64,000 nucleotides of DNA from Rhizomicrobium sp. (GCA_044339125.1 JBIIWB010000006.1:24428-88427), one strand, 5' to 3'. Positions 4,084-51,084 are shown, counted from the first letter of the stretch. Numbers and translations are program-made. Notes: generated from the sequence alone by a model not told the origin.

Positions 4084-4097
4084 CCCGGCACGCCCGG

Positions 4098-4127
4098 TAT
4101 TTAGGCTCCCCCTCGGGAAGGATCAAG
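4098..4127 (-). promoter_or_regulatory. candidate sigma-32 (RpoH)-type promoter of groESL
   Basis: The minus strand reads CTTGAT-N16-CCTAAATA just upstream of CIRCE. It resembles the CTTGAA/CCCCATNT-type heat-shock promoter. Match judged by eye only. Confidence 0.4.
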
Positions 4128-4269
4128 GGCCGGGCGCACCGAAACCTGGGATACCGGGCGGGCGGACCCGCGTTCTCAATACCGGAGAGGTTAATGCCCG
4201 TTCATGCTGGGTTCAGCCGCAGCGACCGATATTCCCGGCCTGGGCAGGGCAGAGTGAGAGGAGTTTGAG

Positions 4270-4590
4270 ATGAAGACCTTCAGCAAGATCGCCCCGAAAT
4301 TGATCATCGGCGCCGCCATGCTGGTCGGCGCCACCATCGCCACCGCCGCCCCCGCCGCCGCGCAGTCCTTCGGCTTCAGCCTTGGCGGCCTCGGCTATTC
4401 CCTGAACTACAATGATGGCTATGGCGGCTATTACGGGAATTATTATGGCCGCCCGAGCTACGGCTACTATGGCAGCCCTTATTACTATGACTATCCGCGT
4501 CCCTATTACGGCCGTCCGGCCTATTATGGGCGTTCCTATTATGGTGGTCGTCCCTCTTACGGCAGGCCGTATCGCGGCTATCGCCGTTAA
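4270..4590 (+). CDS. small secreted Tyr/Gly/Arg/Pro-rich low-complexity protein
   Basis: GAGGAG RBS. Signal peptide MKTFSKIAPKLIIGAAMLVGATIATAAPAAA-QS. The mature part is made of YYGRP(S/A)Y-like units, with 23 Tyr by my count. Confidence 0.6.
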   Translation: MKTFSKIAPKLIIGAAMLVGATIATAAPAAAQSFGFSLGGLGYSLNYNDGYGGYYGNYYGRPSYGYYGSPYYYDYPRPYYGRPAYYGRSYYGGRPSYGRPYRGYRR

Positions 4591-4656
4591 AATCTGACAG
4601 ACGACAGAAGCGGCTCCGGTGAAAACCGGGGCAGCTTCGCTTCAGGAGAAACGCAA

Positions 4657-5301
4657 ATGAAGACGATCTGGAAAGCGGCGCTGGGCGTCACCGCGCTGGG
4701 AATGCTGGGGGCGTGCCAGCCCTATGACGGCTATGGCGGCGGCTATTATGGCGGCGGCGCAGGCTATGGCTATTGCGATGGCTATGGCTGCCCGGACAAT
4801 TACTGGGACCAGCCGCTCTATTACGGCTCGGTCTATTATGGCGGCCGCTGGAACAATGGGCCCTTCTATTACCGCGACTGGAATGGCGGCCGTCAGTACT
4901 GGCTGGGCGGCAGCTGGCGCAACGACGATTGGCGCGGGGCGCGGCCGCAACAATATCGCGATGGCCGTTACGGCCCGGCGCTGGGCCGCGAATGGTATCG
5001 CAACAATCGGCCGGGCTTCGACCGCAACAATGATGGCCGCCCGGACTTCAATCTGAGTGGAGGGCGCGGCGGACGCGGCCCCAACATCGATCGCAACAAT
5101 GATGGACGGCCCGATTTCAGACGCGGTATTGGCCGCAACCAGGGCGAGGTTCAGCAGAACCGCCGAAGCTATCCGGATCGCAGCGGTCGCGTCTCGGGCG
5201 AGCGCCCGCAGGCGCCGCAGGCAGGGCCGCGCGGCGATGGCGGCCCGCGCGGCGGCGGCCCACGCGGCGAGGGAAGATCCCGCGGCGCGCCACAGCAGTA
5301 A
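4657..5301 (+). CDS. lipoprotein with Tyr/Gly-rich N-region, two DRNNDGRPDF repeats and an RGG-like tail
   Basis: AGGAG RBS and lipobox LGAC (MKTIWKAALGVTALGMLGAC). Contains GYGGGYYGGGAGYGY and two copies of DRNNDGRPDF (a DxNxDG Ca-loop-like motif). The C-terminus reads GPRGDGGPRGGGPRGEGRSRG. Confidence 0.65.
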   Translation: MKTIWKAALGVTALGMLGACQPYDGYGGGYYGGGAGYGYCDGYGCPDNYWDQPLYYGSVYYGGRWNNGPFYYRDWNGGRQYWLGGSWRNDDWRGARPQQYRDGRYGPALGREWYRNNRPGFDRNNDGRPDFNLSGGRGGRGPNIDRNNDGRPDFRRGIGRNQGEVQQNRRSYPDRSGRVSGERPQAPQAGPRGDGGPRGGGPRGEGRSRGAPQQ

Positions 5302-5395: not shown

Positions 5396-6631
5396 ATGAC
5401 CAAGGTTCTCATCAACCTCAGCGCTTTCTTCGCCTGCGCCTTTCTGGGCGCGTCACTGGTGCTGTTCACCGGCTGGCCGCTGGCGCTGCTGTCGACCATC
5501 GTCGCCTTTCTGGGCACACAGCAGGTTTCCGCCACGCTGGCGCGCCGCCGCGACAAGCGCGCCATGGCGCGCGAATTCGCGCAACTCCGCCAGATGACGC
5601 TGGAGTTCCAGGGCCAGATCAGCGAGACGCGCGAACGCATGGGCGCGATCAACAACCTCATCGACGAGCGCACCAGCGCCCAGAGCCGCAAGATCGTGGC
5701 CGAGCTGAAGGTGCTGGAAAGCCTGATGCGCGATTTCGCGGGCAAGATCTCGCGCACCGCGACGCCGGTTCAGGTCAACCGCATTCCGTCCACTGGCCTC
5801 GCCGCCGCCTATATCTCCACCTTCGGCGACAAGAGTGAATTGCTGGAAACCATCCGCGCCAGCCTGGAAGAAAACCGCGTCGATCTCTATCTGCAGCCCA
5901 TCGTCAGCCTGCCGCAGCGCAAGCTGCGCTATTACGAGGCGCTGTCGCGCCTGCGCGATGCGGGCGGGCAGGTGATCATGCCGTCGGAATACATGAACGT
6001 CGCCGCCGCGGCGGGCCTGATGTCGGTGGTGGACAATCTGCTGCTGTTCCGCTGTGTCCAGGTGCTGCGCCGCCTTGCCGCCAAGACGCGTGAGATCGGC
6101 ATCTTCTGCAACATCTCCGCCGACACGCTGGCCGATGCCGAATTCTTCCCCCAGTTCCTCGACTATATGGCGGCCAACCGCGACCTGTCGGCGCTGATCA
6201 TCTTCGAATTCTCGCAGGAAGCCGTGCTGAAGGCCGGTCCGGTGGGCGAGCAGAACCTGGCGCGCCTGTCGGAGATGGGCTTCGCGCTTTCGATGGACCA
6301 TGTCGAAACGCTGGCGCTGGACTTCGTCAAGCTCAAGAGCATCGGCTTCCGCCATCTCAAGGTGCGCGCCACCACCATGGTGCAGGGCATGAGCGGCGCG
6401 GGCGCCGCCGTCGCCGCCGAGGATTTCAAGAAGCTGCTGTCGCGCCACGGCCTCAACCTGATCGCCGAGCGGGTCGAGGACGAAAAGACCGTGCTGCAGC
6501 TGCTGGACTATGCCGTGGACTTCGCCCAGGGCTATCTGTTCGGCGAACCCCGCGCAGTGCGCGACGATATCGCCAAGCCGGTCCTGCCGGACCGCGATGC
6601 GCCTGTTATTCCGTTCAAAAAAGCCAGCTAG
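5396..6631 (+). CDS. membrane-anchored coiled-coil protein with degenerate EAL domain (TipF-like architecture)
   Basis: N-terminal hydrophobic segments and a heptad-like region. The EAL motif is present (YYEALSRLR), but the DDFGTG position reads SMDHVETL and the K-x-D position reads LKVRA. Confidence 0.85.
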   Translation: MTKVLINLSAFFACAFLGASLVLFTGWPLALLSTIVAFLGTQQVSATLARRRDKRAMAREFAQLRQMTLEFQGQISETRERMGAINNLIDERTSAQSRKIVAELKVLESLMRDFAGKISRTATPVQVNRIPSTGLAAAYISTFGDKSELLETIRASLEENRVDLYLQPIVSLPQRKLRYYEALSRLRDAGGQVIMPSEYMNVAAAAGLMSVVDNLLLFRCVQVLRRLAAKTREIGIFCNISADTLADAEFFPQFLDYMAANRDLSALIIFEFSQEAVLKAGPVGEQNLARLSEMGFALSMDHVETLALDFVKLKSIGFRHLKVRATTMVQGMSGAGAAVAAEDFKKLLSRHGLNLIAERVEDEKTVLQLLDYAVDFAQGYLFGEPRAVRDDIAKPVLPDRDAPVIPFKKAS

Positions 6632-38053: not shown

Positions 38054-38132
<79 letters not shown>

Positions 38133-38180
38133 AAATTCAAAAGCTTAGTAGGGCTATGGTTTCCACCGGAATTTAGGGAT

Positions 38181-38204
38181 GTGTAATTCCCGTGTAATCG
38201 CGCC
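38181..38204 (+). promoter_or_regulatory. candidate integrase arm-type sites (GTGTAAT x2, 11-bp phasing), left arm
   Basis: GTGTAATTCCCGTGTAATCGCGCC matches GTGCAATTTCCGTGTAATTGCGCC at 46797-46820 at 21 of 24 positions, in the same orientation. Confidence 0.4.
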
Positions 38205-38458
38205 ATTGCGCTTAGCATTCACGATATCACGTTCCTAAAGTCCCCAACGTCTTGGCGCCAGAGACGGCTAGATGCGACCCATCTCAGCCAGTTTGCGAAA
38301 ATGCGCTCCCAGAGCGGTCAATCGGCAGCCCGTGGAGTGGACTGCCGCATGCCACATATGTGGCTGATCGACCGGCACAATGAGTCCGTGACGATAGCAT
38401 GCTTGCAGCTAATCGAGTGCGGCGAAGCCAGCGTAAATGGTGTCTTGGAGGCGCAATC

Positions 38459-39565
38459 ATGAGAAACTCACGGAGCAATCCCAAAAACGACCGGCTCAAA
38501 CGGGACTATCTCGTGTGGCTGCGGGAGGCCAAACAGCGCTCACCGGCCACGGTGGACCAGGTTCGCCACGCCATTGACCGTTTTGAGGCCTATATCCAGT
38601 TCAAGGGTTTCGAGACGTTCAACCGCGAGCAAGCGATGGGCTTCAAGCATGTCCTGATGGAGACCGATGCCGTGCGGTCCGGCAAGCCGATGAGCCTCTC
38701 AACTGTTCATCACATCCTGCAAGCCAACAAGGATTTCCTGGCTTGGCTGCACAACCGGTCGGGATTCCGGAGGGCTATATCCCTGCACGACATAGCTTAC
38801 CTCAACCTCTCGCGAGGGGAGGAGCGCCAAGCCCGTACTTCCAAGCCCAAGGACTATCCCAGCGTAGAGGAGTTCCGGCGGGCCATCATGGCGATGCCGG
38901 GAGCCAGCACGCTTGAGAGGCGCGACCGGGCCGTCATGGCGCTTCTGCTCCAAACGGGGATCCGTGATGCCGCCCTAACCGGCGTGAAGATGCGGGACGT
39001 GGATATTCGCAGAAATTTTGTCTTTCAGGACCCGCGCCACGCCCCTACGAAATTTCGCAAGCCAATTGACTCATTCCTGTTTTCCTTCGGAGAGGATGTG
39101 GACGGCATTTTTTTTGACTGGATTCGATTTTTGCAATCCGACAGAAAATTTGGCCCGGATGATCCGGTCTTTCCCAAAACCCTAGTCGGCCCGGGACAGG
39201 ACCAGAGTTTTGCGGCGCTGGGTATCGGCCGCGAGCATTGGGCTGACGCCGGCGCGGTGCGACGCATATTCCGCGAGGCTTTTGCCCGCATCGGACTTTC
39301 CTTTACCCAACCTCATTCCGCGCGCAATACGCTGGTACAGTACGCGTACCAACAGAAATTCAGTGCTGAGCAGATGAAGGCATTGGCCCAGAATTTGGGA
39401 CATGAGAGCCCGCTTACGACTTTCGGCAGTTACGGTCCGCTGACGCGGGAAAGGCAGGGGGAGGTCATTGCCGAGGTGGGGCGGCAGTCGGGAGGAGTGG
39501 ACCTTACCCAATTGACGGCCGCCGAACTGTTGCGGGCGTTGTCCGTGAAGGTGGGTGCGGGATAG
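38459..39565 (+). CDS. tyrosine-type site-specific integrase
   Basis: Start set at ATG 38459 (GGAGG RBS). The C-terminal catalytic region carries HSARNT...LGHES...YG (the H-x-x-R, H and Y of the tyrosine recombinase signature). It lies next to the tRNA. Confidence 0.9.
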   Translation: MRNSRSNPKNDRLKRDYLVWLREAKQRSPATVDQVRHAIDRFEAYIQFKGFETFNREQAMGFKHVLMETDAVRSGKPMSLSTVHHILQANKDFLAWLHNRSGFRRAISLHDIAYLNLSRGEERQARTSKPKDYPSVEEFRRAIMAMPGASTLERRDRAVMALLLQTGIRDAALTGVKMRDVDIRRNFVFQDPRHAPTKFRKPIDSFLFSFGEDVDGIFFDWIRFLQSDRKFGPDDPVFPKTLVGPGQDQSFAALGIGREHWADAGAVRRIFREAFARIGLSFTQPHSARNTLVQYAYQQKFSAEQMKALAQNLGHESPLTTFGSYGPLTRERQGEVIAEVGRQSGGVDLTQLTAAELLRALSVKVGAG

Positions 39566-39572
39566 CTCGCAA

Positions 39573-39600
39573 TGACCGCTTTTGACCCAAAGCGGACTTT
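39573..39600. repeat. palindromic repeat family, copy A (diverged)
   Basis: TGACCGCTTTTGACCCAAAGCGGACTTT, 8 nt after the integrase stop. Stem CCGCTTT/AAAGCGG. Confidence 0.6.
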
Positions 39601-39784
39601 AGCAACTCCGCGCCCGGGTGCGTAACAGGGAGGGAGCGCCCTATTTGTTTCTGATCAATTGGTTAAGGTGGATAACCTTCGAAATTTGTCACCATATCTC
39701 TCAATAGGATACTTCGGTTTTGGCTAGCTTCCTGCGACATTCTGCTGGCTTGTAGGCGTAGTTGCATACCGGTTTGGTTCTTCC

Positions 39785-40132
39785 ATGAAATTGGCCTTCC
39801 GCCACATCCTGCTGGCCGCGCTGTTGCTGCGCGCGTTCGTGCCGCTTGGCTGGATGCCGGGCACGGCCCAGCTTGGCGAAGCCGCATTCATCATCTGCGC
39901 CGCCGACGGCACCTTGCAGCACGGCACGCCGGGCAAGGATAGCGGCGCCCCGCACAGCCAGCCCTGCGCCTTTAGCGCCGCGCTGAAGAGCTTCGATCTT
40001 CCGGAAGCTGCGGCCATCGCGCCGCCTTCTTCCACCGCACTGGTCATCGCCAGTGTCTTCGCACCGACCGCGCCCGCGCCTGATGCCGCGCGCACGCCGC
40101 AAAGCCCCCGCGCCCCACCTGCCTCCGCCTGA
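39785..40132 (+). CDS. exported hypothetical protein, DUF2946-like
   Basis: Signal-like N-terminus MKLAFRHILLAALLLRAFVPLGWMP. High GC3, no clear RBS. The DUF2946 assignment is from memory of the family pattern and its association with TonB receptors. Confidence 0.4.
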   Translation: MKLAFRHILLAALLLRAFVPLGWMPGTAQLGEAAFIICAADGTLQHGTPGKDSGAPHSQPCAFSAALKSFDLPEAAAIAPPSSTALVIASVFAPTAPAPDAARTPQSPRAPPASA

Positions 40133-40195
40133 ACGGTTTGAGCCTGACGCCGCGCCTTCGCGCCCGACGTCGCCCATGCTTTCACGGAGACACCC

Positions 40196-40495
40196 ATGCT
40201 TCTGCATGCCATTGCCGTGCGGGGCCGCTCTGCGGACTTCCCCGCAACCATGCCGGCCTTCGCCGGACATCTTGACCCGCTGTCGCAGCCACTTGCGGCG
40301 CTGGGGCTTCCCCAACGTTCGCTTAACGCCATGCGCGCAGCGGGCATCGCCACTTTGGCCGATGCCGCCGACTGGTCGCTGCGGGACCTGAAAACCCTGC
40401 CCCAAGTCGGCCCCGCCGCCTTGGACATGCTGCAGGAGGCGCTGCGTGCGGCGCATCTGGACCTGCGGCCTTCGACGCGACGCAGGAGGCTCTGA
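40196..40495 (+). CDS. stand-alone RNA polymerase alpha C-terminal domain (alpha-CTD)-like protein
   Basis: LGLPQRSLNAMRAAGIATLADAADWSLRDLKTLPQVGPAALDMLQEALRAAHLDL follows the alpha-CTD helix-hairpin-helix pattern (L.LS.RS.N.L..A.I.T..DL...S..EL.....G.KSL.EI...L...GL.L). GGAGA RBS. Confidence 0.55.
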   Translation: MLLHAIAVRGRSADFPATMPAFAGHLDPLSQPLAALGLPQRSLNAMRAAGIATLADAADWSLRDLKTLPQVGPAALDMLQEALRAAHLDLRPSTRRRRL

Positions 40496-40498
40496 GCC

Positions 40499-40588
40499 AT
40501 GCGGCTTGGCAGCTTCAACCTGTTGCATATAGCGGGAATCTGCGCGCTCGGACTGGTCGCGCTCTTCTCCTGCACACTTCACGGCTGA
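40499..40588 (+). CDS. possible 29-aa hydrophobic peptide
   Basis: MRLGSFNLLHIAGICALGLVALFSCTLHG. An AGGAGG RBS lies 8 nt upstream. It sits between the alpha-CTD-like gene and the TonB receptor gene. Confidence 0.25.
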   Translation: MRLGSFNLLHIAGICALGLVALFSCTLHG

Positions 40589-40669
40589 GCATTCTACTCA
40601 TTTAAAAACTGGCGGGTGCGGCGAGCCGGATGGCCACGCATCCGCCCCACAAATCATACGAGGGATACC

Positions 40670-42715
40670 ATGAAGACCACATTGCTTGCTTCCACCGCGC
40701 TGCTCGCGCTGGCCACTGCCCTTCCGGCGCATGCCCAGTCTGCCGCGCTGGCCGCCGAAACCGTCATCGTCACCGCCGCCGGCAATCCCGGCGATCCGCC
40801 TGTCGTGGCCGATGCGCGCGAGCGGCTGTCGCGCACGCCCGGCGCCGTATCGGTCGTGGCGGCGGAATCCTTCGAGAACCGCCTGGCCACCGGCTTTCCC
40901 GACATGATGCGCGATGTGCCCGGCGTGCTGACCAACAAGCGCTATGGCGAGGAATCGCGCCTTTCCATTCGCGGTTCGGGCCTAGACCAGTCCTTCCACC
41001 AGCGCGGTGTCCTGCTGGCGCAGGATGGCGTGCCCTTTGCCGATGCCGACGGCTTCTCGGATTTCCAGAAGGTGGATGCGCAGACCGCCCGCTATGTCGA
41101 GGTCTACAAGGGCGGCAATGCCCTGCGCTTTGGCGGGGCGCAGCTGGGCGGCGCGATCAACATGGTCACGGCCACCGGCAAGACCGCCACGGCCGAGAAT
41201 CTTCTGCGGCTGGAAGGCGGCGCTTTCGGCACCTTCCGCGGCCAGGTCGCGGTGGCGCGCGACTATGACGGTTTCGACTTCTATGCCTCGGCCAGCGGCC
41301 TTGTCGCAGACGGCTTCCGCGTCCAATCCGCCCAGAGCCAGGCGCGCGCCACGGTGAATGCCGGTTACAGCTTCGGCGAGGAACAGGAAGTGCGCCTGAT
41401 CCTGTATGGGGCGGAGATTGACCAGCAGGTGCCCGGTGCGGTCAACCTTGCCAGCGCGCTGAACACGCCGCAGGCGCCGGGTGCCAATGTCGTCACCAAC
41501 AAATGGGCTCGCGACCAGCAGGTCGCCCGCGCCAGTCTGCAGACACGCTGGCGCTTCAACGAGAATCTTGTGTTCGAAGGCGGCGTCTACACAACTGGCA
41601 CGGCGCTGTATCACCCCATCTCGATCGTGATCCAGCAGAACATTCACACACAAGGCGCCTTCGGACGCTTCGACTGGACCGGCGACATTGCTGGCCACCG
41701 CGCCGACCTGTTCGCGGGCGTGGCCTACCGGCAGGGCAGCAACAACAGCCGCCTGTACAACAATGTCGGCGGCAATATGGGCTTCAAGTTCGGCGACGCC
41801 CATCAGGAAGCCAGCGGCACCGATGTCTTCGCCGAAGGCCGCTTCTTCGTCACCGACACGCTGGCGCTGGTGGCAGGCGCCAGCTGGGGCATGGCAACCC
41901 GCGACTACATCAACAATCTGAACGCGGCGAACAACGCGAACAAGGATTTCGAATGGTTCGCGCCGCGCCTAGGCCTGATCTGGGAAAATGACAGCGGCGT
42001 GCAGGTGTATGCCAATGTCACCCGCTCGGTGGAGCCGCCGCATTATGGCGCGTTGGTGCAGTCGCCCTTCCCGGGCTTTGTGCCGGTGGCAGCACAGCGC
42101 GCCTGGACAGGTGAGGTCGGCACGCGTGGCCGCAGCGGCGACCTGCTCTGGGATGTCACTTTTTATCGCGCTTCGGTAAAGGGCGAGTTGCTGAGCTTCG
42201 TGCCCACGGCGGGCCTGCCTGCTGCAGTCTTCAATGCCGATAGCACTATCCATCAGGGCATCGAGGCCTCGCTGGACTGGGACCTGGGAGCGGACCTGCT
42301 GGGCGGACCGCTGCGGCTGCGCCAGACCTGGGCCTGGTCGGACTTCGCGTTTGATGGCGACAAGGTCTATGGCGACAACCGGCTGCCGGTTGCGCCGGAA
42401 CACCAGTACCGCCTCTCGCTGCGATATGATGACCCGTCGGGTTACTTCCTCGAGCCGGGCATTGACTGGCGGCCCGTGTCCACCTTCGTGGACTATGCCA
42501 ACACGCTGAAGGCACCGGGTTATGTGCTGTTCAACATGGGCGCGGGATATCGCTTCAGCGACAGCCTGTCCCTGTTCCTCGACCTGCGCAACCTGGCGGA
42601 CGAGCATTATGCGGCGGAGTTCGGCTCTGTCACCGATGCGCGCATCGCCCAGACCGCCGTGTTCTTCCCGGGCGAGGGCCGCACCATCTATGCAGGCATT
42701 GGCTACAAGTTCTAA
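40670..42715 (+). CDS. TonB-dependent outer-membrane receptor
   Basis: Start set at ATG 40670 (signal peptide MKTTLLASTALLALATALPAHA). Plug-domain motifs are present, and the C-terminal beta-barrel ends ...IYAGIGYKF. Confidence 0.92.
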   Translation: MKTTLLASTALLALATALPAHAQSAALAAETVIVTAAGNPGDPPVVADARERLSRTPGAVSVVAAESFENRLATGFPDMMRDVPGVLTNKRYGEESRLSIRGSGLDQSFHQRGVLLAQDGVPFADADGFSDFQKVDAQTARYVEVYKGGNALRFGGAQLGGAINMVTATGKTATAENLLRLEGGAFGTFRGQVAVARDYDGFDFYASASGLVADGFRVQSAQSQARATVNAGYSFGEEQEVRLILYGAEIDQQVPGAVNLASALNTPQAPGANVVTNKWARDQQVARASLQTRWRFNENLVFEGGVYTTGTALYHPISIVIQQNIHTQGAFGRFDWTGDIAGHRADLFAGVAYRQGSNNSRLYNNVGGNMGFKFGDAHQEASGTDVFAEGRFFVTDTLALVAGASWGMATRDYINNLNAANNANKDFEWFAPRLGLIWENDSGVQVYANVTRSVEPPHYGALVQSPFPGFVPVAAQRAWTGEVGTRGRSGDLLWDVTFYRASVKGELLSFVPTAGLPAAVFNADSTIHQGIEASLDWDLGADLLGGPLRLRQTWAWSDFAFDGDKVYGDNRLPVAPEHQYRLSLRYDDPSGYFLEPGIDWRPVSTFVDYANTLKAPGYVLFNMGAGYRFSDSLSLFLDLRNLADEHYAAEFGSVTDARIAQTAVFFPGEGRTIYAGIGYKF

Positions 42716-42723
42716 GAGACGAC

Positions 42724-43137
42724 ATGCGCAGACTGATCGCTCTTGCGATCATTGCAATGCTGGCAGGCTGCGGTCCGTCCGAAGAGGCGGACCGCATCGC
42801 CGTCATCGCGGTGATGCACAAGGTCAATGACAAGCCGGGCCTGCCCGTGGATGTCGGCCCGGTGGTGGTCGAAGGCGGCCACGCCGTCGCCGACTGGACG
42901 CAAGGCGAGATGGGCGGGCGGGCGCTGCTGGTCCGCAAGGACCATGGCTGGGTCATCACGCTTTGCGCAGGCGACATCCTGCGCACACGCGACGGTCTGG
43001 TCCGACTGGGTGTGCCGGATGCCCAGGCCGCAACACTGGCGGACGAACTGGCAGCGGCAGAAGCCAGTGTCCTGCCGGGCAGACTGAAACGCATGGCCGA
43101 ATTTCAGGGCCTGATGCGCATGGACGAGGGCCATTAG
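42724..43137 (+). CDS. lipoprotein of unknown function, co-transcribed with the receptor
   Basis: Lipobox MLAGC. It starts 8 nt after the receptor stop. No domain recognised. Confidence 0.7.
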   Translation: MRRLIALAIIAMLAGCGPSEEADRIAVIAVMHKVNDKPGLPVDVGPVVVEGGHAVADWTQGEMGGRALLVRKDHGWVITLCAGDILRTRDGLVRLGVPDAQAATLADELAAAEASVLPGRLKRMAEFQGLMRMDEGH

Positions 43138-43232
43138 CTGCTGCCTGACTAAGCAAAACAGCAATTGAAACCAAGAGACTAGCTTTCAGCGATATACTCA
43201 TGCCTGCAGGGTAATGGAAACAGCGAAAGCAT

Positions 43233-43264
43233 GAATGTCCGCTATTGGCGCAAAGCGGACGTTC
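43233..43264. repeat. palindromic repeat family, copy B
   Basis: GAATGTCCGCTATTGGCGCAAAGCGGACGTTC; stem GTCCGCT/AGCGGAC. It differs at 1 of 32 positions from copy E. Confidence 0.85.
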
Positions 43265-43337
43265 TGGGCCGCTAAGCGTCACCTTTCTTCTCATAAATGA
43301 CACCTGGTTGGCGGTGCATGTAAGTCAGTTTGCGTAT

Positions 43338-43365
43338 GTATGCAGAAATATCTGAAAGTGCATAC
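43338..43365. promoter_or_regulatory. candidate NikR operator GTATGCA-N14-TGCATAC
   Basis: Perfect 7-bp inverted repeat ending 20 nt upstream of the nikR ATG. It equals GTATG-N18-CATAC, the same half-site and spacing as the E. coli nik operator GTATGA-N16-TCATAC. Confidence 0.6.
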
Positions 43366-43385
43366 TCTCTGAAACGGAGAGAGGC

Positions 43386-43859
43386 ATGCAGCGCATCACC
43401 ATCAGTGCCGACGACGCTTTCATCGAAGAGTTGGATGCGCTTTGTGCCCTGCGCGCCTACCAGAACCGCTCCGAGGCTCTACGCGACTTAGCCCGCGCAG
43501 GAATGCGGCAGGCGCGGGATGAAGGCGGCGGCTCAGGCCCCTGCGTCGCTGCGCTGGTCTATGTATATGACCACAACGCCCGCGACCTCTCGAGGCGGCT
43601 TGCCGAGACCTTCCACGACCATCATGACCTGTCTCTGGCGGCAACCCATGTCCATCTCGACCATGACAGCGTCATGGAAGTTGCCATCCTCCGTGGCGAT
43701 GCCGCCGATGTGGAACATCTGGCGGGGCACGTTATCGCCGAGCGCGGTGTCCGCCATGGGCGACTGGTTAAGATTCCCGTTGAACAGAAGATCGAAACCC
43801 ATCGGCACGGCCATGGCAGCCATCGTCACCTCCACCTCCATGTGCGCAAGGCGGGCTGA
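43386..43859 (+). CDS. nikR: nickel-responsive regulator NikR (ribbon-helix-helix) with His-rich tail
   Basis: MQRITISADDAFIEELDALCALRAYQNRSEALRDLAR is the RHH domain. A C-terminal metal-binding domain follows (HVHLDHDSVMEV...). The tail reads THRHGHGSHRHLHLH. Confidence 0.9.
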   Translation: MQRITISADDAFIEELDALCALRAYQNRSEALRDLARAGMRQARDEGGGSGPCVAALVYVYDHNARDLSRRLAETFHDHHDLSLAATHVHLDHDSVMEVAILRGDAADVEHLAGHVIAERGVRHGRLVKIPVEQKIETHRHGHGSHRHLHLHVRKAG

Positions 43860-45859
43860 TGAAAGCATTTCTTCTCGCCGCCGCCGCCATCTTTGCTACG
43901 CCCGCGCTGGCCCAACCACAGCCCGAAACCGTCACCGTGCTGGGCCGCCAAGCCAACCTAACCGGCATCGCCACATCGGCCAATGAAGGCTCGGTCAGCG
44001 CCTCTGACATGGGCTTGCGCCCGCTCTTACGCCCCGGCGAGATCGTGGAGAATATTCCCGGCGTCATCGTCAGCCAACATTCCGGCAGCGGCAAGGCCAA
44101 CCAGTATTACTTGCGCGGCTTCAACCTGGATCACGGCACCGACCTTGCCATCACCGTCAACGGCGCGCCGGTCAACATGGTCAGTCACGGTCACGGGCAG
44201 GGCTATGCCGACCTCAACTTCGTCATTCCCGAACTGATCTCCCGCGTCGATTACCGCAAGGGGCCGTATTACGCCGAGGTCGGCGACTTCGGCGCGGCGG
44301 GCGCGTTCGACATCCGCTATTACGACCGCCTGCCGTTCGGCCTCGCCAAGATCGAAGGCGGCCAGTTCGGCTATGGCCGCGCGGTGATTGCCGACAATCT
44401 GACGCTGGGGCAGGGCAATCTGCTCTATGGCCTGTCCTTCGAGCACAGCGATGGCCCTTGGGATTTGCCCGACGACTCGCGCAAATGGTCGGGCGCCTTG
44501 CGCTACAGCGAAGGCGGCTTCAGCCTGACTGCAGAGGCGTATCACAACATCTGGAACGCCACCGACCAGACGCCGCAGCGCGCCGTGGCGGCTGGCTTAA
44601 TCTCGCGCTGGGGCAACATCGATCCCACCGATGGCGGCAAGTCGGGCCGCTACACCATCAATGCGGGATGGGATCTGGGCGACACGCACTTTCGCGCCTA
44701 TGGCCTCTACAGCCATCTGCGCCTGCATTCCAACTTCACCTATTTCCTCGACGATCCTGTCAATGGCGACCAGTTCGAGCAGGTCGATGTCCGCTTCGTG
44801 ATGGGAGGCCATGCCGACCGCGTGTTGGAACACGCGCTGGGGGGCATGGAATCCGTCACCACGGTGGGCGCCGACCTGCGACACGACAACATCAACAACG
44901 CACTCTACAAGACGATGGGTGGTACGGCGCGGCTTGGCACCACGACGAAGGACCACATCGCCGAAACTAGCCTCTCCGGCTATCTGCGCAACGAGACGCA
45001 CTGGCTGCCGTGGCTACGCTCCATCGTCGGCGTGCGGCTGGACCAGTTCTGGTTCGATGTCACCGACAAGTCGGGCGCGGGCAACAGCGGCATCACCGAT
45101 GCCGCCGCCTTCGGTCCCAAGGCGGGTCTGGTGTTCGGGCCGTGGGAAAAGACCGAGCTTTACCTGAACTACGGCACCGGCTTTCACAGCAACGATGCGC
45201 GCGGGCTGTTCGCGCCCGCCGGGGATGCCACGCCCATCGCCCGCGCCACCGGCGGCGAGGTCGGCATCCGCAGCGGGATCATTCCGGGCGTGACCTCATC
45301 GGTCAGCTTCTGGCTGCTCAACATGCAGTCCGAACTGACATGGGTGGGCGATGCGGGCACCACCGAGCCGGGCGCGCGCACCCGTCGCTATGGCATCGAG
45401 TTCGCCAATTTCTGGACGCCCACCGACTGGCTCACCATCGACCTGGATTACGCCTGGTCGAAGGCGCGCTTCATCGATTTCGATCCGGCGGGCCAGTACG
45501 TGCCGGAATCGCTGGTCTCCAACTTCGATGGCGGCATCGCAATCCACGATCTGGGCGGCTGGGCCGATCCCTTCTTCGCCGGGCTGCGGATGCGCTATTT
45601 CGGGCCGCGCCCGCTGGTGCAGGACAATACCATCCGCTCCCGCGCCACCACGCTGCTGTATGCCGATCTGGGCTGGAACATCTCCGAACGCTTCAGCGTG
45701 CAACTCAACGTCTTCAATCTTCTGGACGCGCGGGCCAGCGACATCGACTATGTCTACACCTCGCGCCTGCCGGGCGAACCGGCGGGCGGCGTCGATGATG
45801 TCCACACGCATCCATCCCAGCCGCGCGAGTTCAGGCTCAGCCTGACGGCTCGGCTTTAG
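43859..45859 (+). CDS. TonB-dependent receptor, translationally coupled to nikR
   Basis: ATGA overlap with the nikR stop. Signal peptide MKAFLLAAAAIFATPALA. Plug and barrel motifs are present; the terminal residues are ...RLSLTARL. Confidence 0.92.
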   Translation: MKAFLLAAAAIFATPALAQPQPETVTVLGRQANLTGIATSANEGSVSASDMGLRPLLRPGEIVENIPGVIVSQHSGSGKANQYYLRGFNLDHGTDLAITVNGAPVNMVSHGHGQGYADLNFVIPELISRVDYRKGPYYAEVGDFGAAGAFDIRYYDRLPFGLAKIEGGQFGYGRAVIADNLTLGQGNLLYGLSFEHSDGPWDLPDDSRKWSGALRYSEGGFSLTAEAYHNIWNATDQTPQRAVAAGLISRWGNIDPTDGGKSGRYTINAGWDLGDTHFRAYGLYSHLRLHSNFTYFLDDPVNGDQFEQVDVRFVMGGHADRVLEHALGGMESVTTVGADLRHDNINNALYKTMGGTARLGTTTKDHIAETSLSGYLRNETHWLPWLRSIVGVRLDQFWFDVTDKSGAGNSGITDAAAFGPKAGLVFGPWEKTELYLNYGTGFHSNDARGLFAPAGDATPIARATGGEVGIRSGIIPGVTSSVSFWLLNMQSELTWVGDAGTTEPGARTRRYGIEFANFWTPTDWLTIDLDYAWSKARFIDFDPAGQYVPESLVSNFDGGIAIHDLGGWADPFFAGLRMRYFGPRPLVQDNTIRSRATTLLYADLGWNISERFSVQLNVFNLLDARASDIDYVYTSRLPGEPAGGVDDVHTHPSQPREFRLSLTARL

Positions 45860-45902
45860 CGGTAAGTAAGTGTCACGTTGCCCAGATTTATGACACCGGG
45901 CC

Positions 45903-45931
45903 AATGTCCGCTTCTGGCGCAAAGCGGACGG
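45903..45931. repeat. palindromic repeat family, copy C
   Basis: AATGTCCGCTTCTGGCGCAAAGCGGACGG, 44 nt after the receptor stop. Confidence 0.8.
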
Positions 45932-45975
45932 TGGCCGATTAGCCAGGGCCATCCGCTGGTTTCTTGACGCGAAGG

Positions 45976-46003
45976 GCTGCTTCTGACCCAAAGCGGACAT
46001 TCA
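45976..46003. repeat. palindromic repeat family, copy D (left arm degenerate)
   Basis: GCTGCTTCTGACCCAAAGCGGACATTC, in the same orientation as copy C and ~70 bp from it. Confidence 0.6.
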
Positions 46004-46120
46004 GACCCAGGCCAGGCCATGATAAGGGGCTTTGGTGGCGGCACCTCAATCCCCACTATTCAGGGGCATCGCGGTCCAGCGCCGCTCCAGTTATGCTCCT
46101 CGCGGGGCAAGGGGGCACAC

Positions 46121-46624
46121 ATGACCGAGATGGTTCGCCCGAGGCGCAGATGGCCTTGGGTACTTGCCTGTGTGGTGCTGTTTGTCGCCGGCACGTATGT
46201 CGGATTCCAAGGCGCGGTCCGGACGTTGCACCGCCAGTTTACCGCCGCTTGTCCCACGGTCTTTTCGCCGCGCGAGGGCGAGGTCGAAACACTGGCACCC
46301 GGCCCCGGCATTTTCCCGCCGCGTGCGACCGCGCGGCCGGTTCGGCAATCTCAGTTGGGAGCGCTGGCGCATGTGCGCGGGAGTGTGGTGGTCCTGGCGC
46401 GGATCGAGGCCGATGGCAGCGTCTCGCGCGCCGAGTTGGCCCAGTCCAGCGGCTTTTGTCCCTATGACGATCAGGCGCTGAAGGATGTGCGGCAATGGAC
46501 ATTCCAGCCTGCGCGCCGCTTAGGCGAAGCTGTCGCCGCGTGGATCCCAATCACGGTCCGCTATGAACCCGCCGACGCCCCGCGCCCGTCACGCCCCGCG
46601 CCGCTTCCCGGGGAGAAAATATAG
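46121..46624 (+). CDS. TonB-family energy transducer (C-terminal domain protein)
   Basis: Start set at ATG 46121. It has an N-terminal TM anchor (WPWVLACVVLFVAGTYV). The C-terminal TonB fold reads VVVLARIEADGSVSRAELAQSSGFCPYDDQALKDVRQWTFQPA. Confidence 0.8.
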   Translation: MTEMVRPRRRWPWVLACVVLFVAGTYVGFQGAVRTLHRQFTAACPTVFSPREGEVETLAPGPGIFPPRATARPVRQSQLGALAHVRGSVVVLARIEADGSVSRAELAQSSGFCPYDDQALKDVRQWTFQPARRLGEAVAAWIPITVRYEPADAPRPSRPAPLPGEKI

Positions 46625-46667
46625 GCTCCCCTAACAGTCACGACCATGCTGAGTGCAAGAACTGGTT

Positions 46668-46699
46668 GAATGTCCGCTATTGGCGCAAAGCGGACATTC
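46668..46699. repeat. palindromic repeat family, copy E
   Basis: GAATGTCCGCTATTGGCGCAAAGCGGACATTC, 44 nt after the TonB-like gene. Confidence 0.85.
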
Positions 46700-46796
46700 G
46701 TCCACCCAACCCCTCCCGAAGCCAATCGCAGTATTTCGCCAAACAAGGGGGCGGTCGCAGTGAAGGGTATGCGTTGGGCTGCGCGCCCTAGCCGAA

Positions 46797-46820
46797 GTGC
46801 AATTTCCGTGTAATTGCGCC
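46797..46820 (+). promoter_or_regulatory. candidate integrase arm-type sites, right arm
   Basis: GTGCAATTTCCGTGTAATTGCGCC is the partner of 38181-38204. It lies 121 nt inside attR. Confidence 0.4.
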
Positions 46821-46941
46821 CGGGAAGGCTTAGTTCGTTCTGGAATGGAACGGATGTTCTCGGGCCGGTAGAGGTCTGCAAACGTAATGAGATCAAACCC
46901 TTGGGAATACCCCGGACATTTCAGGTGATCCCATAGCGAAA

Positions 46942-46990
<49 letters not shown>

Positions 46991-47049
46991 TATAAAATAA
47001 AAGCATACAGCTATTTTTTTTCACACTAAATCATAAGTTCAATAAACAT

Positions 47050-47952
47050 ATGAAAAAGAATACTGAAAGCGACTCATATGTGCTGGTGGTAGAAGATGTT
47101 TCTTTAGCCAGAAGATCTTTTTGCAAACTCTTGTCTCAGAATGGGTTTCGAGTACTGGAGGCGAGCAGCATTTTCGAGGCGTTAGAAGCTATAGCGAAAC
47201 ATCAAGTAGGCACCGTAGTTTTAGATATTAATCTGCCGGACGGCGAAGGATATGAACTGATTGAGAGGGTGCGTGAGCAACAAAAATCTTATCCTTTTAT
47301 GCAATTCGTAATTATATCAGCTCATGTAACGACAGAGGGCGCCATACGCGCCATGCGCCTTTCGATTAGCGAACTTCTCACAAAGCCTTTCAAGCCCGTC
47401 GATTTTCGAGAAGCTGTTCAGCGCGCATCTTCACGTGAAAGACTTCTGAGAAAAAATGCAGCTATTGAAAATTCGGCCCTTGAGTCTTTGATTTATGTGA
47501 AGTCCCAAGCCGACACAGCAGTCGATCGCTTAACTCATCATCTGTCCACTGCCATTATTAATAAAAGAGACTTAAAGCAGCAGTGTGTAGCGAACCCAAT
47601 AAGGCAATTGAAAACAGTGAAGCCCGAAATTGCACTGCTCAACGTGTTATGCAGGGAATTTAGCGTACTGGTGAGTATATCCGCTTGGCATATGCTACTC
47701 ACCATTTATGAGGCGTACCTCAAGAATGCCCCCGTCACTGTGAAGGGTATTGCCGCCGCCTGTGATGTTCCGCTTTCCTCGGCATTGAGAAAGCTTGCCG
47801 AAATGGAAAAATCCAACCTGATTGTGCGTAAAGGCGATCCAAATGATGCAAGAAGGACTTTTGTGCACTTGTCTGAGCAGGGTTTAGATCAGATCCAGGC
47901 ATACTTTTTTATGGCAGAAGATTTTCACGCAGTTGCAAAATGTACGGGCTGA
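47050..47952 (+). CDS. response regulator: receiver domain fused to a MarR-type winged-helix DNA-binding domain
   Basis: The REC signature residues are all present (ED at 15-16, D59 in VVLDINLPDGEG, S90, K112-P). The C-terminal VTVKGIAAACDVPLSSALRKLAEMEKSNLIVRKGDPNDARRTFVHLSEQG matches the MarR recognition helix and wing (DP.D.R...V.L...G). AT-rich codon usage. Confidence 0.8.
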   Translation: MKKNTESDSYVLVVEDVSLARRSFCKLLSQNGFRVLEASSIFEALEAIAKHQVGTVVLDINLPDGEGYELIERVREQQKSYPFMQFVIISAHVTTEGAIRAMRLSISELLTKPFKPVDFREAVQRASSRERLLRKNAAIENSALESLIYVKSQADTAVDRLTHHLSTAIINKRDLKQQCVANPIRQLKTVKPEIALLNVLCREFSVLVSISAWHMLLTIYEAYLKNAPVTVKGIAAACDVPLSSALRKLAEMEKSNLIVRKGDPNDARRTFVHLSEQGLDQIQAYFFMAEDFHAVAKCTG

Positions 47953-48476
47953 TACATGTCGCTTTGCGGGACCTGGCGATCCAAAAATTAGGCTTAGTCG
48001 CTTGGACGGAAGTGTCCAGCCAGCTTGACGCTCCCGAACTACCTCTTAGTTTGGAAATGTATGATGATCAGCTAACACAGGCTTTATTTTCTGAGGTTTC
48101 CAGGCGCCTTGAACTAGACGGTTCGGAGTTTCTCAAACAGTTCGGTTGCCACTGGATAAGTTTCATTGTGAAAAGCAACTATTCTAATATTCTCAAATAT
48201 TTCGGACCGGATTTCAGGAGCTGCATAGCGAATCTGGACGCGCTCCATGTGTCAGTCTGCGACACCATGCAAAACGCTAGGACGCCGAAATTCACAATAT
48301 TGGTCAATGACGCCCACAGGATTACAATTCGCTATATCAGCCAATTGAAGGGACTAAGTCCATTTGTGGAAGGGCTTCTCAAAGGATTACTACAGCACTT
48401 TAATGAACAAGGTGAAGTTTCAGTGCTGCGAAGCGCACCTGATCACACTGACTTTCTTGTAACTTTAAACAACTAG
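47940..48476 (+). CDS. H-NOX (haem NO/O2-binding) sensor protein
   Basis: 178 aa. It starts MYGLIHVAL. NLDALH (H103) aligns to the proximal His motif NLDALHDHL of sGC beta1. RYISQL sits at the Y-x-S-x-R position, with Leu in place of Arg. It overlaps the regulator gene by 13 nt. Confidence 0.8.
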   Translation: MYGLIHVALRDLAIQKLGLVAWTEVSSQLDAPELPLSLEMYDDQLTQALFSEVSRRLELDGSEFLKQFGCHWISFIVKSNYSNILKYFGPDFRSCIANLDALHVSVCDTMQNARTPKFTILVNDAHRITIRYISQLKGLSPFVEGLLKGLLQHFNEQGEVSVLRSAPDHTDFLVTLNN

Positions 48477-48477
48477 T

Positions 48478-49593
48478 ATGCCCCAAGTTCCAGTTGCCAT
48501 CTTAGCTTTGTATTGGCCCGCATATGCTATCCTTGATCGTTCCCTGATAATTCAAGACTGCGGCCCGTCCTTACAGCATCACTATCGAGGTTCCTTGAAA
48601 GGAAGGCTCGCGACAGACTTTTTCGGCATTTCACCTGCGAGTTTGGAGCTAAGTATCGATGAGCCTGGTCGCTGTTTCTTGACGCAATCAGAACTTCTCC
48701 CTCTTCTGCGTGGCACTGCATTTCGTACACAGAATGAGGAAGTGGTCCTATTAATGAAGTACGAAGTCTCAAATCTGAACGAGGCGATACATCATGGGCT
48801 TTCATCAAAGGATTTTTGTTCAATTAACGGTGAGCATCAACAATTTATAAATTCCGCGCTCAAGGATTCTTTGCTAGCTGACCTTAGAAGTTACGCCGGC
48901 GAGCTTACAATCACCAAGGACTTGCTGCAGAAAATCATGCAATCACAGGCGCGTCTCACCAACTACCTTTGCCATGATTTTACGAATTTGCTTTCTGTAA
49001 TCTCTTTTGACGCAAGTCAGTTAGATGGTTCTTGCACGAAGCGAGAACGCAGTCAGATTTGTGAGAACATTTTAGTTGCCGCGCAATTAGGTGTTCACGT
49101 TAGCAAAACCATCACAAAACTGAACGCCGAGGCGACGACTTCGCGTATCTCCGTTGTTAGTTGGGTGTTGGATAACTTAAGTCTCATGAAATCAGCTGCG
49201 CATAATGCTGAACTCCATACCGAGCTTTTCGCACAAGATTGTCTGATTGAAGTTGACGAGAGAGAACTTCTTTTTTGCTTGTTAAACCTGCTAATAAATG
49301 CCCGAGAAGCGAATTTCAGTAGAGCGCCAATTACCGTCAGAACGACTTGTGAATTTCACAAGTCCAGACGGGTAATCATTATCTCTGTGGGAGGTATGGG
49401 CCATGGAATTTCACGTAACGCCAGAGATTTACTATCAACAACAAAAGGCCGTGACAGGGGGGTTGGGTTGCTCGCGGTCAGAAGTTTTTGTGACCGTTAC
49501 AATGGAGACTTTGTGATTGAAGAAAAGCAAGGGGCCGGAACAGTGGCATCAATATTCTTGCCGGTCTGTGATTATGCAGCGATGCATGCTTAA
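48478..49593 (+). CDS. cytoplasmic sensor histidine kinase (H-NOX-associated type)
   Basis: The ATG lies 1 nt after the H-NOX stop, and there are no TM segments. H-box LCHDFTNLLSVI (H166), N-box LLNLLINAREAN, STTK...GVGLL G2 region. The G1 box reads VGGMGHGI, with Gly where Asp is expected. The N-terminal ~120 aa look PAS/HNOBA-like. Confidence 0.8.
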   Translation: MPQVPVAILALYWPAYAILDRSLIIQDCGPSLQHHYRGSLKGRLATDFFGISPASLELSIDEPGRCFLTQSELLPLLRGTAFRTQNEEVVLLMKYEVSNLNEAIHHGLSSKDFCSINGEHQQFINSALKDSLLADLRSYAGELTITKDLLQKIMQSQARLTNYLCHDFTNLLSVISFDASQLDGSCTKRERSQICENILVAAQLGVHVSKTITKLNAEATTSRISVVSWVLDNLSLMKSAAHNAELHTELFAQDCLIEVDERELLFCLLNLLINAREANFSRAPITVRTTCEFHKSRRVIIISVGGMGHGISRNARDLLSTTKGRDRGVGLLAVRSFCDRYNGDFVIEEKQGAGTVASIFLPVCDYAAMHA

Positions 49594-49610
49594 TACCGAC
49601 ATACTACATG

Positions 49611-49635
49611 CAGCAATTTATACAATTGCTGTTCT
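49611..49635 (+). terminator. possible terminator of the H-NOX operon
   Basis: CAGCAATT-tatac-AATTGCTG, followed by TTCT, 17 nt after the kinase stop. Weak U-tract. Confidence 0.35.
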
Positions 49636-49787
49636 AACGCTTTCCTCTTGCGCTTCGATGAACGGATAGCTGGCCTTTGCAAGGCGGCGTGGGGATGATC
49701 CCGTCACAATCGCCGCTATGGACGTGCCAGTCGCAGCTTCTAGCTCATCTGACCTGACGGATATTTTGTACCAGCGGCATTGAGAGA

Positions 49788-50660
49788 CTATTGCGTGGCG
49801 CCCATTTGGTCCAGAGGTGGGGCAGCTGGGCTAAATGCCTGCGGTGCTGGTGGCCGATATCCCAGCGATGAGTGGGGTCTGGCGGTGTTGTAGTGACTAC
49901 GCCATTGCCCAATCGCAGCCTTGGCCCCCTTCAGGCTGTAGAAGATCTCCCCATTGAGCAGTTCGTCACGCAGCTTGCCGTTGAAGCTCTCGCAATAGCC
50001 ATTCTCCCACGGGCTTCCAGGCTCAATGTACAGCGTCTTGGCCCCAACACTCGCAAGCCAGCTGCGTACAATCTTGGACGTCATCTCAGGCCCATTGTCT
50101 GACCGGATGTGCTCCGGAACACCGCGGGTCAACATCACGTCGGCCATAGTCTCAATCACACCCAGGCTATTGATCCGTCTGGCAACACGGATTGCTAGGC
50201 ACTCCCGCGTAAACTCGTCAATCAGCGTCATAAGCCGCACCTTGCGGCCAGCATGTGTCTGAGCCTCTACGAAGTCGTAAGACCAGACGTGGTTACGTCT
50301 TTCCGGTCTCAGCCGGACGCAAGCCCCATCATTGAGCCATAAACGGCTCCTAGCCCTCTGTTTACTGGGAACTTTAAGCCCCTCACGGCGCCAGATGCGT
50401 TGCACGCGGTCAGTGCCAACAGTCCATCCTGCTTCCTTGAGAAGCCACGTGATCCGACGATAGCCATGGCGGCCATACTCTGACGCCAAACCAATAATGG
50501 CCTGGGTCAGAGCATCTTCGTCCGCACGAGAAATCACTGTGTAACGCTGCGTACCACGTGGCTGATTAGTAAGCCGGCAAGCACGACGTTCCGAGAGACT
50601 GTACTTCTCACAAGCCCCCGCAACTGCCTGCCGGCGACGTTCGGGGCTTACATGTTTCCC
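49788..50660 (-). CDS. IS3 transposase OrfB (DDE integrase core), expressed as OrfAB by -1 frameshift
   Basis: The -1 frame is open from the slippery site: [51 protein letters not shown]... It then carries DFV..., [10 protein letters not shown] and [17 protein letters not shown] (a DDE/rve core). Confidence 0.9.
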
Positions 50661-50959
50661 GAGGCGATATCCTTGAGGACTTGCTTATCCAGTGAGAGAT
50701 CTGCAACCAGCCGTTTCAGCCGGGCATTCTCTTTCTCCAGGTCCTTCATACGCCGAGCCTGATCCAGCTCTAAACCGCCATATTCTTTGCGCCAGCGGTA
50801 GTAGCTCTGCTGCGATATCCCAGCTTCTCGGCACGCCATCGGGGCACCCTTGCCCTGAGAGATCAAAACTTCAATCTGGCGTAGCAAAATTACTATCTGC
50901 TCCGCGCTAAAACGCTTCTTCGGCATAACTAAGGTCCTTTCCAAGTCAGTTTCTCTCAA
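50648..50959 (-). CDS. IS3 transposase OrfA (HTH)
   Basis: [86 protein letters not shown] is a typical IS3 OrfA with a leucine zipper. Confidence 0.92.
50654..50660 (-). other. programmed -1 frameshift heptamer G_GGA_AAC
   Basis: The X_XXY_YYZ heptamer is in the correct phase of orfA (tcG GGA AAC atg taa). It lies 3 nt before the orfA stop. Confidence 0.7.
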
Positions 50960-51074
50960 ACCGCTTGGTACAAAAAGACCCAGTCAGGTCAGGCGCCCTG
51001 CCTCATTTTCGCCCGCTTTGACAGGCGGCCTGACCGGCGGCAGAGTTCGGCCAAATCAACAAGAAGAATATGCA

Positions 51075-51084
51075 GGGGGGGGGG
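51075..51084. repeat. G10 homopolymer at the RBS position of the permease gene
   Basis: Ten G at 51075-51084. The ATG of the next gene is at 51089. Confidence 0.95.

Follow-up and report, generated by a model that had tools for sequence, protein, structure and literature searches.

We analysed a 64,000-nt stretch of DNA from Rhizomicrobium sp. (GCA_044339125.1, JBIIWB010000006.1:24428-88427), hereafter the window, in which three genes on the plus strand are packed into a cassette. The first (47050-47952) encodes a 300-aa response regulator that joins a receiver (REC) domain to a MarR-type winged helix, the second (47940-48476) a stand-alone H-NOX protein of 178 aa, and the third (48478-49593) a soluble histidine kinase of 371 aa. 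The open reading frames (ORFs) of the regulator and H-NOX genes overlap by 13 nt, and a single nucleotide separates the H-NOX stop codon from the kinase ATG. On the left the cassette borders attR (46942-46990, plus strand), the second copy of an exact 49-bp direct repeat, and on the right an IS3-family element. The region 46991-49749 has a GC content of 45.1% (44.9-45.5% for the single genes; 0.40-0.48, as a fraction, in 300-nt windows), against 65.8% in the left flank, 62.5% in a neighbouring island at tRNA-Phe and 65.9% in the right flank; the low GC spans 46991 to ~49.65 kb and rises again from ~49.6-49.7 kb. A preliminary description of this DNA had proposed the operon-like packing, the position between attR and IS3 and the compositional islet; the coordinates confirm the first two, and the GC contrast and its limits stand, whereas its figure of 38-42% GC is a few points low. 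This region is matched at 100% in three other, independent public assemblies. On balance, we favour the reading that the cassette is a foreign low-GC H-NOX two-component operon, present here as a truncated, drifting remnant with probably impaired signalling.

The H-NOX protein matches the HNOB profile (PF07700) with 117.1 bits (cut-off 25.5) over profile positions 1-162 of 163, and it aligns with soluble guanylate cyclase (sGC) beta1 H-NOX with E = 2e-18 and with Nostoc H-NOX with E = 3e-16. Its proximal His, H103, aligns with sGC beta1 H105. Moreover, in an alignment of 12 sequences, P116, Y132 and S134 do not vary between the clade members, sGC beta1, Nostoc H-NOX and five H-NOX outgroups. 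The distal position F142 aligns with sGC I145, and the distal pocket contains no Tyr. In the light of H-NOX biochemistry, the absence of the Tyr suggests that the window H-NOX is selective for nitric oxide (NO) and carbon monoxide (CO) instead of binding O2. The YxSxR motif reads YISQL (Y132-I-S134-Q-L136), i.e. the Arg is replaced by L136. This Arg is gone in the window protein and in its closest relative (P0069) and is kept in the two more distant clade members (P0070 and L007) and in all outgroups. YxSxR hydrogen-bonds the haem propionates and has been called 'absolutely conserved' in H-NOX (PMC12329717).

The kinase matches HATPase_c with 37.8 bits, while neither the HisKA nor the HNOBA profile of Pfam matches any cassette protein. 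A PAS-like domain occupies residues ~10-100, and His166 lies in the H-box YLCHDFTNLLSVI, where it is invariant in the clade as well as in hybrid kinases related to it, and falls within a long helix (residues 120-181) of the predicted structure. The AlphaFold2 (AF2) model, compared by Foldseek, consists of the PAS-like domain, the long helix, DHp and CA, with the PAS-DHp-CA kinase YF1 (4gcz) as the top match. The assignment as a soluble HisKA/HATPase kinase, made in the preliminary description, is borne out by HATPase_c and the H-box His, and not by the Pfam HisKA profile; its calls of an H-NOX domain and of a REC plus MarR-like regulator agree with the Pfam matches. The N box (LLN270LLIN274AREA) and the G2 box (GVGL) are present. 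The G1 box is degenerate: it reads G305-G306-M-G-H-G, with G306 in place of the Asp, where the hybrid relatives have DTGVGM. In GHKL ATPases, the G1-box Asp binds adenine.

The regulator matches Response_reg (PF00072) with 77.7 bits, and the clade alignment shows no variation at the receiver residues E15/D16 (acidic pocket), D59 (phospho-acceptor), and S90 and K112 (switch residues); in Foldseek comparisons, the receiver aligns with known REC domains with a TM-score (target) of 0.8-0.88. REC is followed by a linker helix of ~60 residues (~116-175) and a MarR-type winged helix (~183-299) that contains the wing motif DPNDARRTFVHLSEQG. The Pfam matches of this C-terminal domain are both marginal (MarR_2, 27.7 with a cut-off of 27; MarR, 24.9 with a cut-off of 24.6). 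An exhaustive HMMER search with residues 130-300 returned 2951 representatives, mostly MarR-sized proteins of ~150 aa, and 15/35 of the longer matches have REC plus MarR or HTH_27. Similarly, all 39/39 matches of residues 181-300 to PDB sequences are MarR-family proteins aligned in register, and the AF2 model (pLDDT 77) contains REC, the helix, a helix-turn-helix, a beta-hairpin wing and a terminal helix. A Foldseek search of PDB with the full-length model was discarded as uninformative on the C-terminal domain, since REC matches dominated it.

Relatives of the cassette proteins are few. Among 5.8 billion proteins there are four full-length relatives of the regulator, three of the H-NOX protein and three of the kinase, all of them metagenomic. 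No relative came up when 185,579 GTDB species genomes were scanned with the alignments of kinase and regulator, two scans of viral contigs found none either, and a metagenome scan returned just one unrelated kinase with 24% identity. The cassette belongs to a very rare clade known from metagenomes only, with four lineages. The order regulator, H-NOX, kinase is kept in every relative (L004, L006 and L007), and in these three independent loci a divergent gene for a 76-aa protein with a hydrophobic N terminus and a PAS_5 (PF07310) gene lie ~200 bp upstream. A 78-aa ORF before the H-NOX gene of locus L010 was considered as a counterpart of the 76-aa ORF and rejected as unrelated. The upstream regions of L004 and L006 share conserved blocks (TTGGCAT..., TGAAACCATTA); the alignment of the relatives' intergenic regions gave no convincing conserved palindromic operator.

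Within the cassette the H-NOX gene is adjacent to and co-oriented with the gene of a kinase that has no other sensory input, as in pairs of the HnoX/HnoK type, and in metagenome-assembled genomes (MAGs) hybrid kinases of 521 aa that share the N-terminal domain of the window kinase adjoin HNOB genes on the downstream side. Because the gene order is conserved and this N-terminal domain occurs in kinases directly after HNOB genes, the comparison supports a genuine partnership between H-NOX and kinase.

The contigs of the relatives all have 44-49% GC. In L007, a low-GC block (1-4900) that holds the cassette, XRE-type helix-turn-helix genes, the PAS_5 gene and the gene for the 76-aa protein ends ~900 bp from tRNA-Val (5811-5885), in DNA of 60-70% GC; thus, the cassette is again a low-GC islet near a tRNA gene in a GC-rich genome. 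The uniformly low GC of the relatives, whatever their flanks, could mean that the gene family itself imposes the low GC through a constraint on composition or codons, and that the cassette is ancestral at its locus. We consider this very improbable: in the window the composition switches exactly at the att repeat and is back at host level by the IS3 element, the species genomes contain no relative, L007 repeats the islet pattern in another genome and at a different tRNA, and the low GC extends to the flanking genes inside the islets. From the 45% GC against 64-66% around it, the absence of a GTDB species-genome relative and the 44-49% GC of the relatives' contigs, we conclude that the cassette was, to judge from its sequence, acquired horizontally beside tRNA-Phe. 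The earlier proposal of horizontal acquisition is upheld; syntenic relatives at host-like GC were not found.

The left end of the cassette is cut short. Homology to L004 begins at 47028, 22 nt before the regulator ATG (17/22 identical), and the att repeat ends 59 bp before this ATG, so that the AT-rich stub 5' of the regulator gene comprises 59 bp (46991-47049, plus strand), of which only the last ~22 nt align with the closest relative. Because homology and att site lie so close to the ATG, the window lacks, upstream of the regulator, the native intergenic region of ~200 bp seen in the relatives, and also the divergent PAS_5 and 76-aa genes found beside the cassettes of three relatives. In the alignment of upstream regions, nothing conserved survives in the stub. 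The stub contains no sigma-70 consensus, and the site count in the scan was no higher than in shuffled sequence; a terminator scan likewise gave no excess over shuffled sequence and no terminator upstream of the regulator.

On the right, a spacer (49594-49749, no strand assigned) leads from the kinase stop codon to the IS3 element; its GC climbs from AT-rich to ~60%, and it has homology to no fetched locus except the identical L001. The IS3-family element (49750-50991, 1242 bp, minus strand), recognised by Pfam and by its terminal inverted repeats, encodes orfA (HTH_Tnp_1, 50648-50959) and orfB (rve, 49788-50537), and carries the terminal inverted repeats TGACCTGAC of the TG...CA type at both ends, 49750 and 50991. 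It is present as a single copy in the window and is 74.6% identical to a Bradyrhizobium IS3; its relatives are mostly alphaproteobacterial, which hints at a plausible alphaproteobacterial host. No target-site duplication of 3-4 bp flanks it (ATC at 49747-49749 vs GGC at 50992-50994), which points to a later rearrangement, or to deletion or recombination at one end. Such a deletion or recombination at the IS3 end may explain the loss of the right part of the AT-rich element. Beyond the element, a run of ten G (51075-51084) lies 4 nt 5' of the ATG (51089) of an amino-acid permease gene; the tract might be prone to slippage, or might be an artefact of assembly.

The att repeat belongs to a different element. 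The tRNA-Phe gene (GAA; 38054-38129, plus strand; ARAGORN), the integration target, has its 3' end within attL (38084-38132, plus strand), the first copy of the exact 49-bp repeat, and between attL and attR lies an 8.8-kb island (38133-46941, no strand assigned) that Pfam and composition (62.5% GC, host-like) set apart from the cassette outside it. The island encodes a tyrosine integrase (38399-39565), two TonB-dependent receptors (40616-42715 and 43859-45859), NikR (43386-43859) and TonB (46019-46624), all assigned by Pfam, and looks like a mobile module for the uptake of nickel or another metal. With repeats of the tRNA 3' end and an integrase, it has the features of a tRNA-integrated island. 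The cassette has none of these, lying outside the repeat pair and without an integrase or a third att copy: the 24-nt core of the repeat occurs at just the two sites (0 expected in shuffles), and a search of the window with this core found no third. The cassette is at most the remnant of a tRNA-integrated element. Excision of the 8.8-kb island would put it directly 3' of tRNA-Phe.

Two further features of the window are recorded here. A REP-like palindrome, TGAATGTCCGCTATTGGCGCAAAGCGGACATTC, occurs in five copies of 33 nt (39569, 43232, 45901, 45970 and 46667) that are 73-100% identical, some of them inverted, and lie inside the tRNA-Phe island or at its edge. In its host part, the window encodes, at 5396-6631, a protein with an EAL domain (a phosphodiesterase acting on cyclic di-GMP, c-di-GMP), and no link between this protein and the cassette was found.

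To follow selection on the window copy, we compared it with its sister lineage, which comprises L004 and L017 (100% identical over their 602-nt overlap). Window and sister align without gaps over 47028-49353 at 86-89% identity. For this one close pair, the ratio of non-synonymous to synonymous substitution rates (dN/dS, or omega), estimated by NG86, is 0.84 for the regulator, 0.73 for H-NOX and 1.11 for the kinase, and 0.92 over all 768 codons (bootstrap 95% confidence interval 0.68-1.25). The differences are spread evenly over the three codon positions (97:87:83), and with L006 and L007 as outgroups the derived replacements number 33 in the window and 32 in the sister lineage. By contrast, dN/dS of the window copy vs L006 and L007 is at most 0.3, with dS saturated, and thus constraint acts on the family overall. 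An error of sequencing or assembly as the source of the flat codon-position spectrum was rejected, since the sister sequence is identical in independent samples and there are no indels; L004 and L005, which come from independent samples, encode the same protein.

In the sister lineage the kinase gene has already been interrupted: AGA is changed to TGA at codon 282 (L017 1147-1149, corresponding to 49321-49323 of the window), before the G1 and G2 boxes, and the N box carries the change N274H. We conclude that the sister kinase (L017, from the freshwater metagenome SRR4198832) is a pseudogene. As for the window copy, the substitution pattern suggests to us that constraint is strongly relaxed in an operon which would still be translated; diversifying selection appears less likely, and one pair cannot separate the two.

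Diversifying selection would be expected if the operon were functional cargo of tRNA-targeting integrative elements, re-tuned for each new host in partner specificity or sensed signal by fast replacement of residues at variable sites on the surface, while the catalytic core is kept. A dN/dS of ~0.9 with conserved columns spared implies omega of at least 1 where sites vary, the 2.3 kb hold few stop codons and not one indel, both lineages have changed equally (33 vs 32), and in two different GC-rich genomes the cassette sits in a low-GC islet near tRNA genes. We nevertheless hold this reading to be rather improbable, because the sister kinase is interrupted by a nonsense codon and lacks its N-box Asn, the lost YxSxR Arg and G1 Asp are core and not surface residues, the element to which the cassette itself belonged has no assignable integrase or att site, viral contigs hold no relatives, and a single sequence pair does not tell positive from relaxed selection. 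The more specific proposal that the module is a dedicated cargo sensor of such elements, through which NO or a different diatomic gas would govern island genes by MarR-type control, and in which the near-neutral omega with reading frames kept would reflect diversifying selection in each new GC-rich host, seems to us improbable as well. If it were true, the controlled genes would be the divergent PAS_5 and small membrane-protein genes, possibly also excision or transfer, and no H-NOX system before it would have had a MarR-type output; its ATP lid and haem pocket would possibly be non-canonical.

Altogether, we propose the following history for the truncated remnant that we favour. An older AT-rich element would have integrated at the 3' flank of tRNA-Phe, and the cassette would be the remnant of its left end. 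The cut on the left, at the att site, would have removed the native promoter/operator region together with the divergent 76-aa and PAS_5 genes, and the right side of the element would have been lost through the IS3-associated rearrangement. Later, the 8.8-kb nickel/TonB island would have entered at the same tRNA and displaced the cassette by 8.9 kb, so that one tRNA-Phe site would have been used repeatedly by successive islands. For the intact ancestral module, characterised pairs of H-NOX and kinase suggest a most likely mechanism. NO would bind to ferrous haem held by His103 within an apolar distal pocket, and H-NOX would then act on the kinase, probably via the PAS-like N-terminal domain, to inhibit autophosphorylation of His166. 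Phosphotransfer to Asp59 would alter the geometry of a dimer that the regulator makes through its linker helix and MarR-type winged helices, and would thereby change operator binding; the most plausible operators would lie in the intergenic region from which the PAS_5 and 76-aa genes diverge.

The window copy itself is, as far as its sequence tells, an open and translationally coupled operon under strongly relaxed constraint. Its canonical signalling is probably impaired, because the Arg contacting the haem propionates and the adenine-binding Asp of the kinase have both been lost. An active NO-responsive phosphorelay, as put forward in the preliminary description, is not supported: the upstream region and partner genes are missing, dN/dS is ~0.9, and the YxSxR Arg and G1 Asp are gone.

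Several observations weigh against this assessment of the window copy. All three ORFs are intact, and no indels have accumulated in 2.3 kb. In a neutral simulation, 267 substitutions produced ~10 stop codons, while a single internal stop is seen, that of the sister (P(<=1) = 0.0007). Replacements avoid columns that are invariant among outgroups (4% vs 26% in H-NOX, p = 0.018; 10% vs 32% in the kinase, p = 0.0005); for the regulator, with two outgroup sequences only, avoidance of invariant columns was not found. Replacements are also more conservative than random ones (mean BLOSUM62 0.06 vs -0.43, p ~0.001), and His103, Tyr132, Ser134, Pro116, His166, the N box, the G2 box, Asp59 and Lys112 are all retained. 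Since stops and indels are depleted, conserved columns are spared and replacements are conservative, the cassette genes do not behave as free-running pseudogenes and may still function; pure pseudogene status as the sole explanation was rejected because of the stop-codon depletion together with the spared conserved columns. As to the two lost residues, K137, next to L136, might substitute for the Arg. The G1 box of the L007 kinase is also atypical (DCGHP), and as L007 is distant and under purifying selection relative to the window copy, the odd ATP lid may characterise the clade in general and be no sign of decay. Moreover, with no terminator upstream of the regulator, read-through from the TonB gene is possible. 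Finally, dN/dS comes from a single close pair, too few to assign the relaxation to a lineage or a time.

The same observations bear on the possibility that the host has recruited the cassette as a fully functional phosphorelay responsive to NO or another gas, in which H-NOX regulates the kinase and the REC-MarR protein controls host promoters. Such a role would fit the intact, translationally coupled ORFs, the presence of His166, Asp59 and Lys112 and of the haem ligand His103 with Tyr132, Ser134 and Pro116, the stops and indels below neutral expectation, the avoidance of conserved columns by replacements, and the identity of the sequence across four assemblies. It fits poorly with a dN/dS of 0.92 and a flat codon-position spectrum, with the loss of the YxSxR Arg and the G1 Asp, with the missing native regulatory region and partner genes and the lack of a promoter consensus in the 59-bp stub, and with a sister kinase that is already truncated. 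We therefore regard full function as unlikely, and keep to the drifting remnant as the preferred explanation.

If so, the window copy would be useful mainly as a dated example of an acquired signalling operon that is eroding: promoter, partners and two core residues are lost and omega is ~0.9, yet selection against frame disruption persists. The members worth study would be those of the L007 and L006 type, which are more distant and better constrained and keep the Arg as well as the upstream partners.

One of the closest known systems is that of Shewanella oneidensis, in which the response regulator HnoC, a transcription factor, is fed by an H-NOX kinase (Plate & Marletta 2012, 2013, as summarised in PMC8738867, PMC4436077 and PMC6335343). 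The known outputs of H-NOX signalling run through quorum-sensing relays, c-di-GMP enzymes and a single characterised transcription factor, HnoC. In both systems a stand-alone H-NOX stands beside a soluble kinase, whose phosphorylation target, in the window a predicted one, is a DNA-binding regulator with a REC domain that acts back on the signalling genes. HnoC differs in that it is an orphan encoded elsewhere and one of three targets of the kinase, the others acting on c-di-GMP, whereas the window has a single regulator that is the first gene of the operon and has a MarR-type output; the comparison with HnoC is by description only. The S. oneidensis H-NOX matches the window H-NOX weakly (E = 5e-9).

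In gammaproteobacterial MAGs, L013 (4545-8537) and L014 carry operons with the same order of regulator, H-NOX and kinase, a DNA-binding regulator again coming first, beside glycosyltransferase genes. Outside the clade of the cassette, the nearest H-NOX proteins are theirs (35% identity). The operons differ by having an NtrC-type sigma-54 enhancer-binding protein as regulator, a hybrid kinase of 663 aa (HNOBA-like, REC, Hpt) and a host-like GC content (57%). Wiring of H-NOX to an enhancer-binding protein is not among the characterised systems in the H-NOX literature examined. The kinase of the window has its own relatives in P0266 and P0268 (MAG GCA_027484625.1, L010), which lie immediately downstream of an HNOB gene and share with it the PAS-like N terminus, the HDFxNLLSVI H-box and CA at 25-28% identity; they differ by a C-terminal REC, a canonical G1 box (DTGVGM) and the absence of a REC-MarR gene beside them. 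Hybrid kinases associated with H-NOX have been described for Silicibacter, and P0266 and P0268 resemble these in architecture (PMC4436077).

The regulator likewise has precedents. A 'MarR' family of response regulators is a minor class in a survey of two-component systems in Azospirillum (PMC4618731, Table 5). Full-length homology to the window regulator (27% identity over 295 residues, E = 7e-27) is found, for example, in WP_181377268 (Ochrobactrum pLM19O1) and WP_230463495 (Sphingobium pNIN1). These alphaproteobacterial REC-MarR proteins match its layout of REC, long linker and MarR-like winged helix and have the motifs WHMLL and DPxDxRRxFV, but they go with other sensors and never with H-NOX. 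On pLM19O1 (L018, 2929-5936) the gene follows one for a dCache-PAS-HisKA kinase, and on pNIN1 (L019, 4929-5807) it follows a Tad/Flp pilus cluster; both are annotated only as 'response regulator'. Our searches found no characterised member of the REC-MarR regulators, and 'REC-MarR' as a term had no match in the literature search. In MarR repressors (PDB 2hr3, MexR, SlyA, MepR), the recognition helix, the wing and the next helix align in register with the window regulator (query 47-102 vs 49-104). Classical MarR proteins are ligand-controlled dimers of ~150 aa, whereas the winged helix of the window is fused to a receiver via a helix of ~60 residues, and control would thus be by phosphorylation and not by a small ligand.

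The wiring is consequently less novel than the preliminary description held, given the known output of HnoC, the NtrC-type operons of the same order and the REC-MarR proteins of cultured Alphaproteobacteria. What is new is the combination of H-NOX input and REC-MarR output, with HnoC compared by description; neither part is new alone. As a conserved operon in which a REC-MarR protein is the cognate regulator of an H-NOX kinase, the family would add a new type of output to those of c-di-GMP enzymes, quorum-sensing relays and HnoC, and it would offer a physiological input for a class of response regulators present in cultured Alphaproteobacteria.

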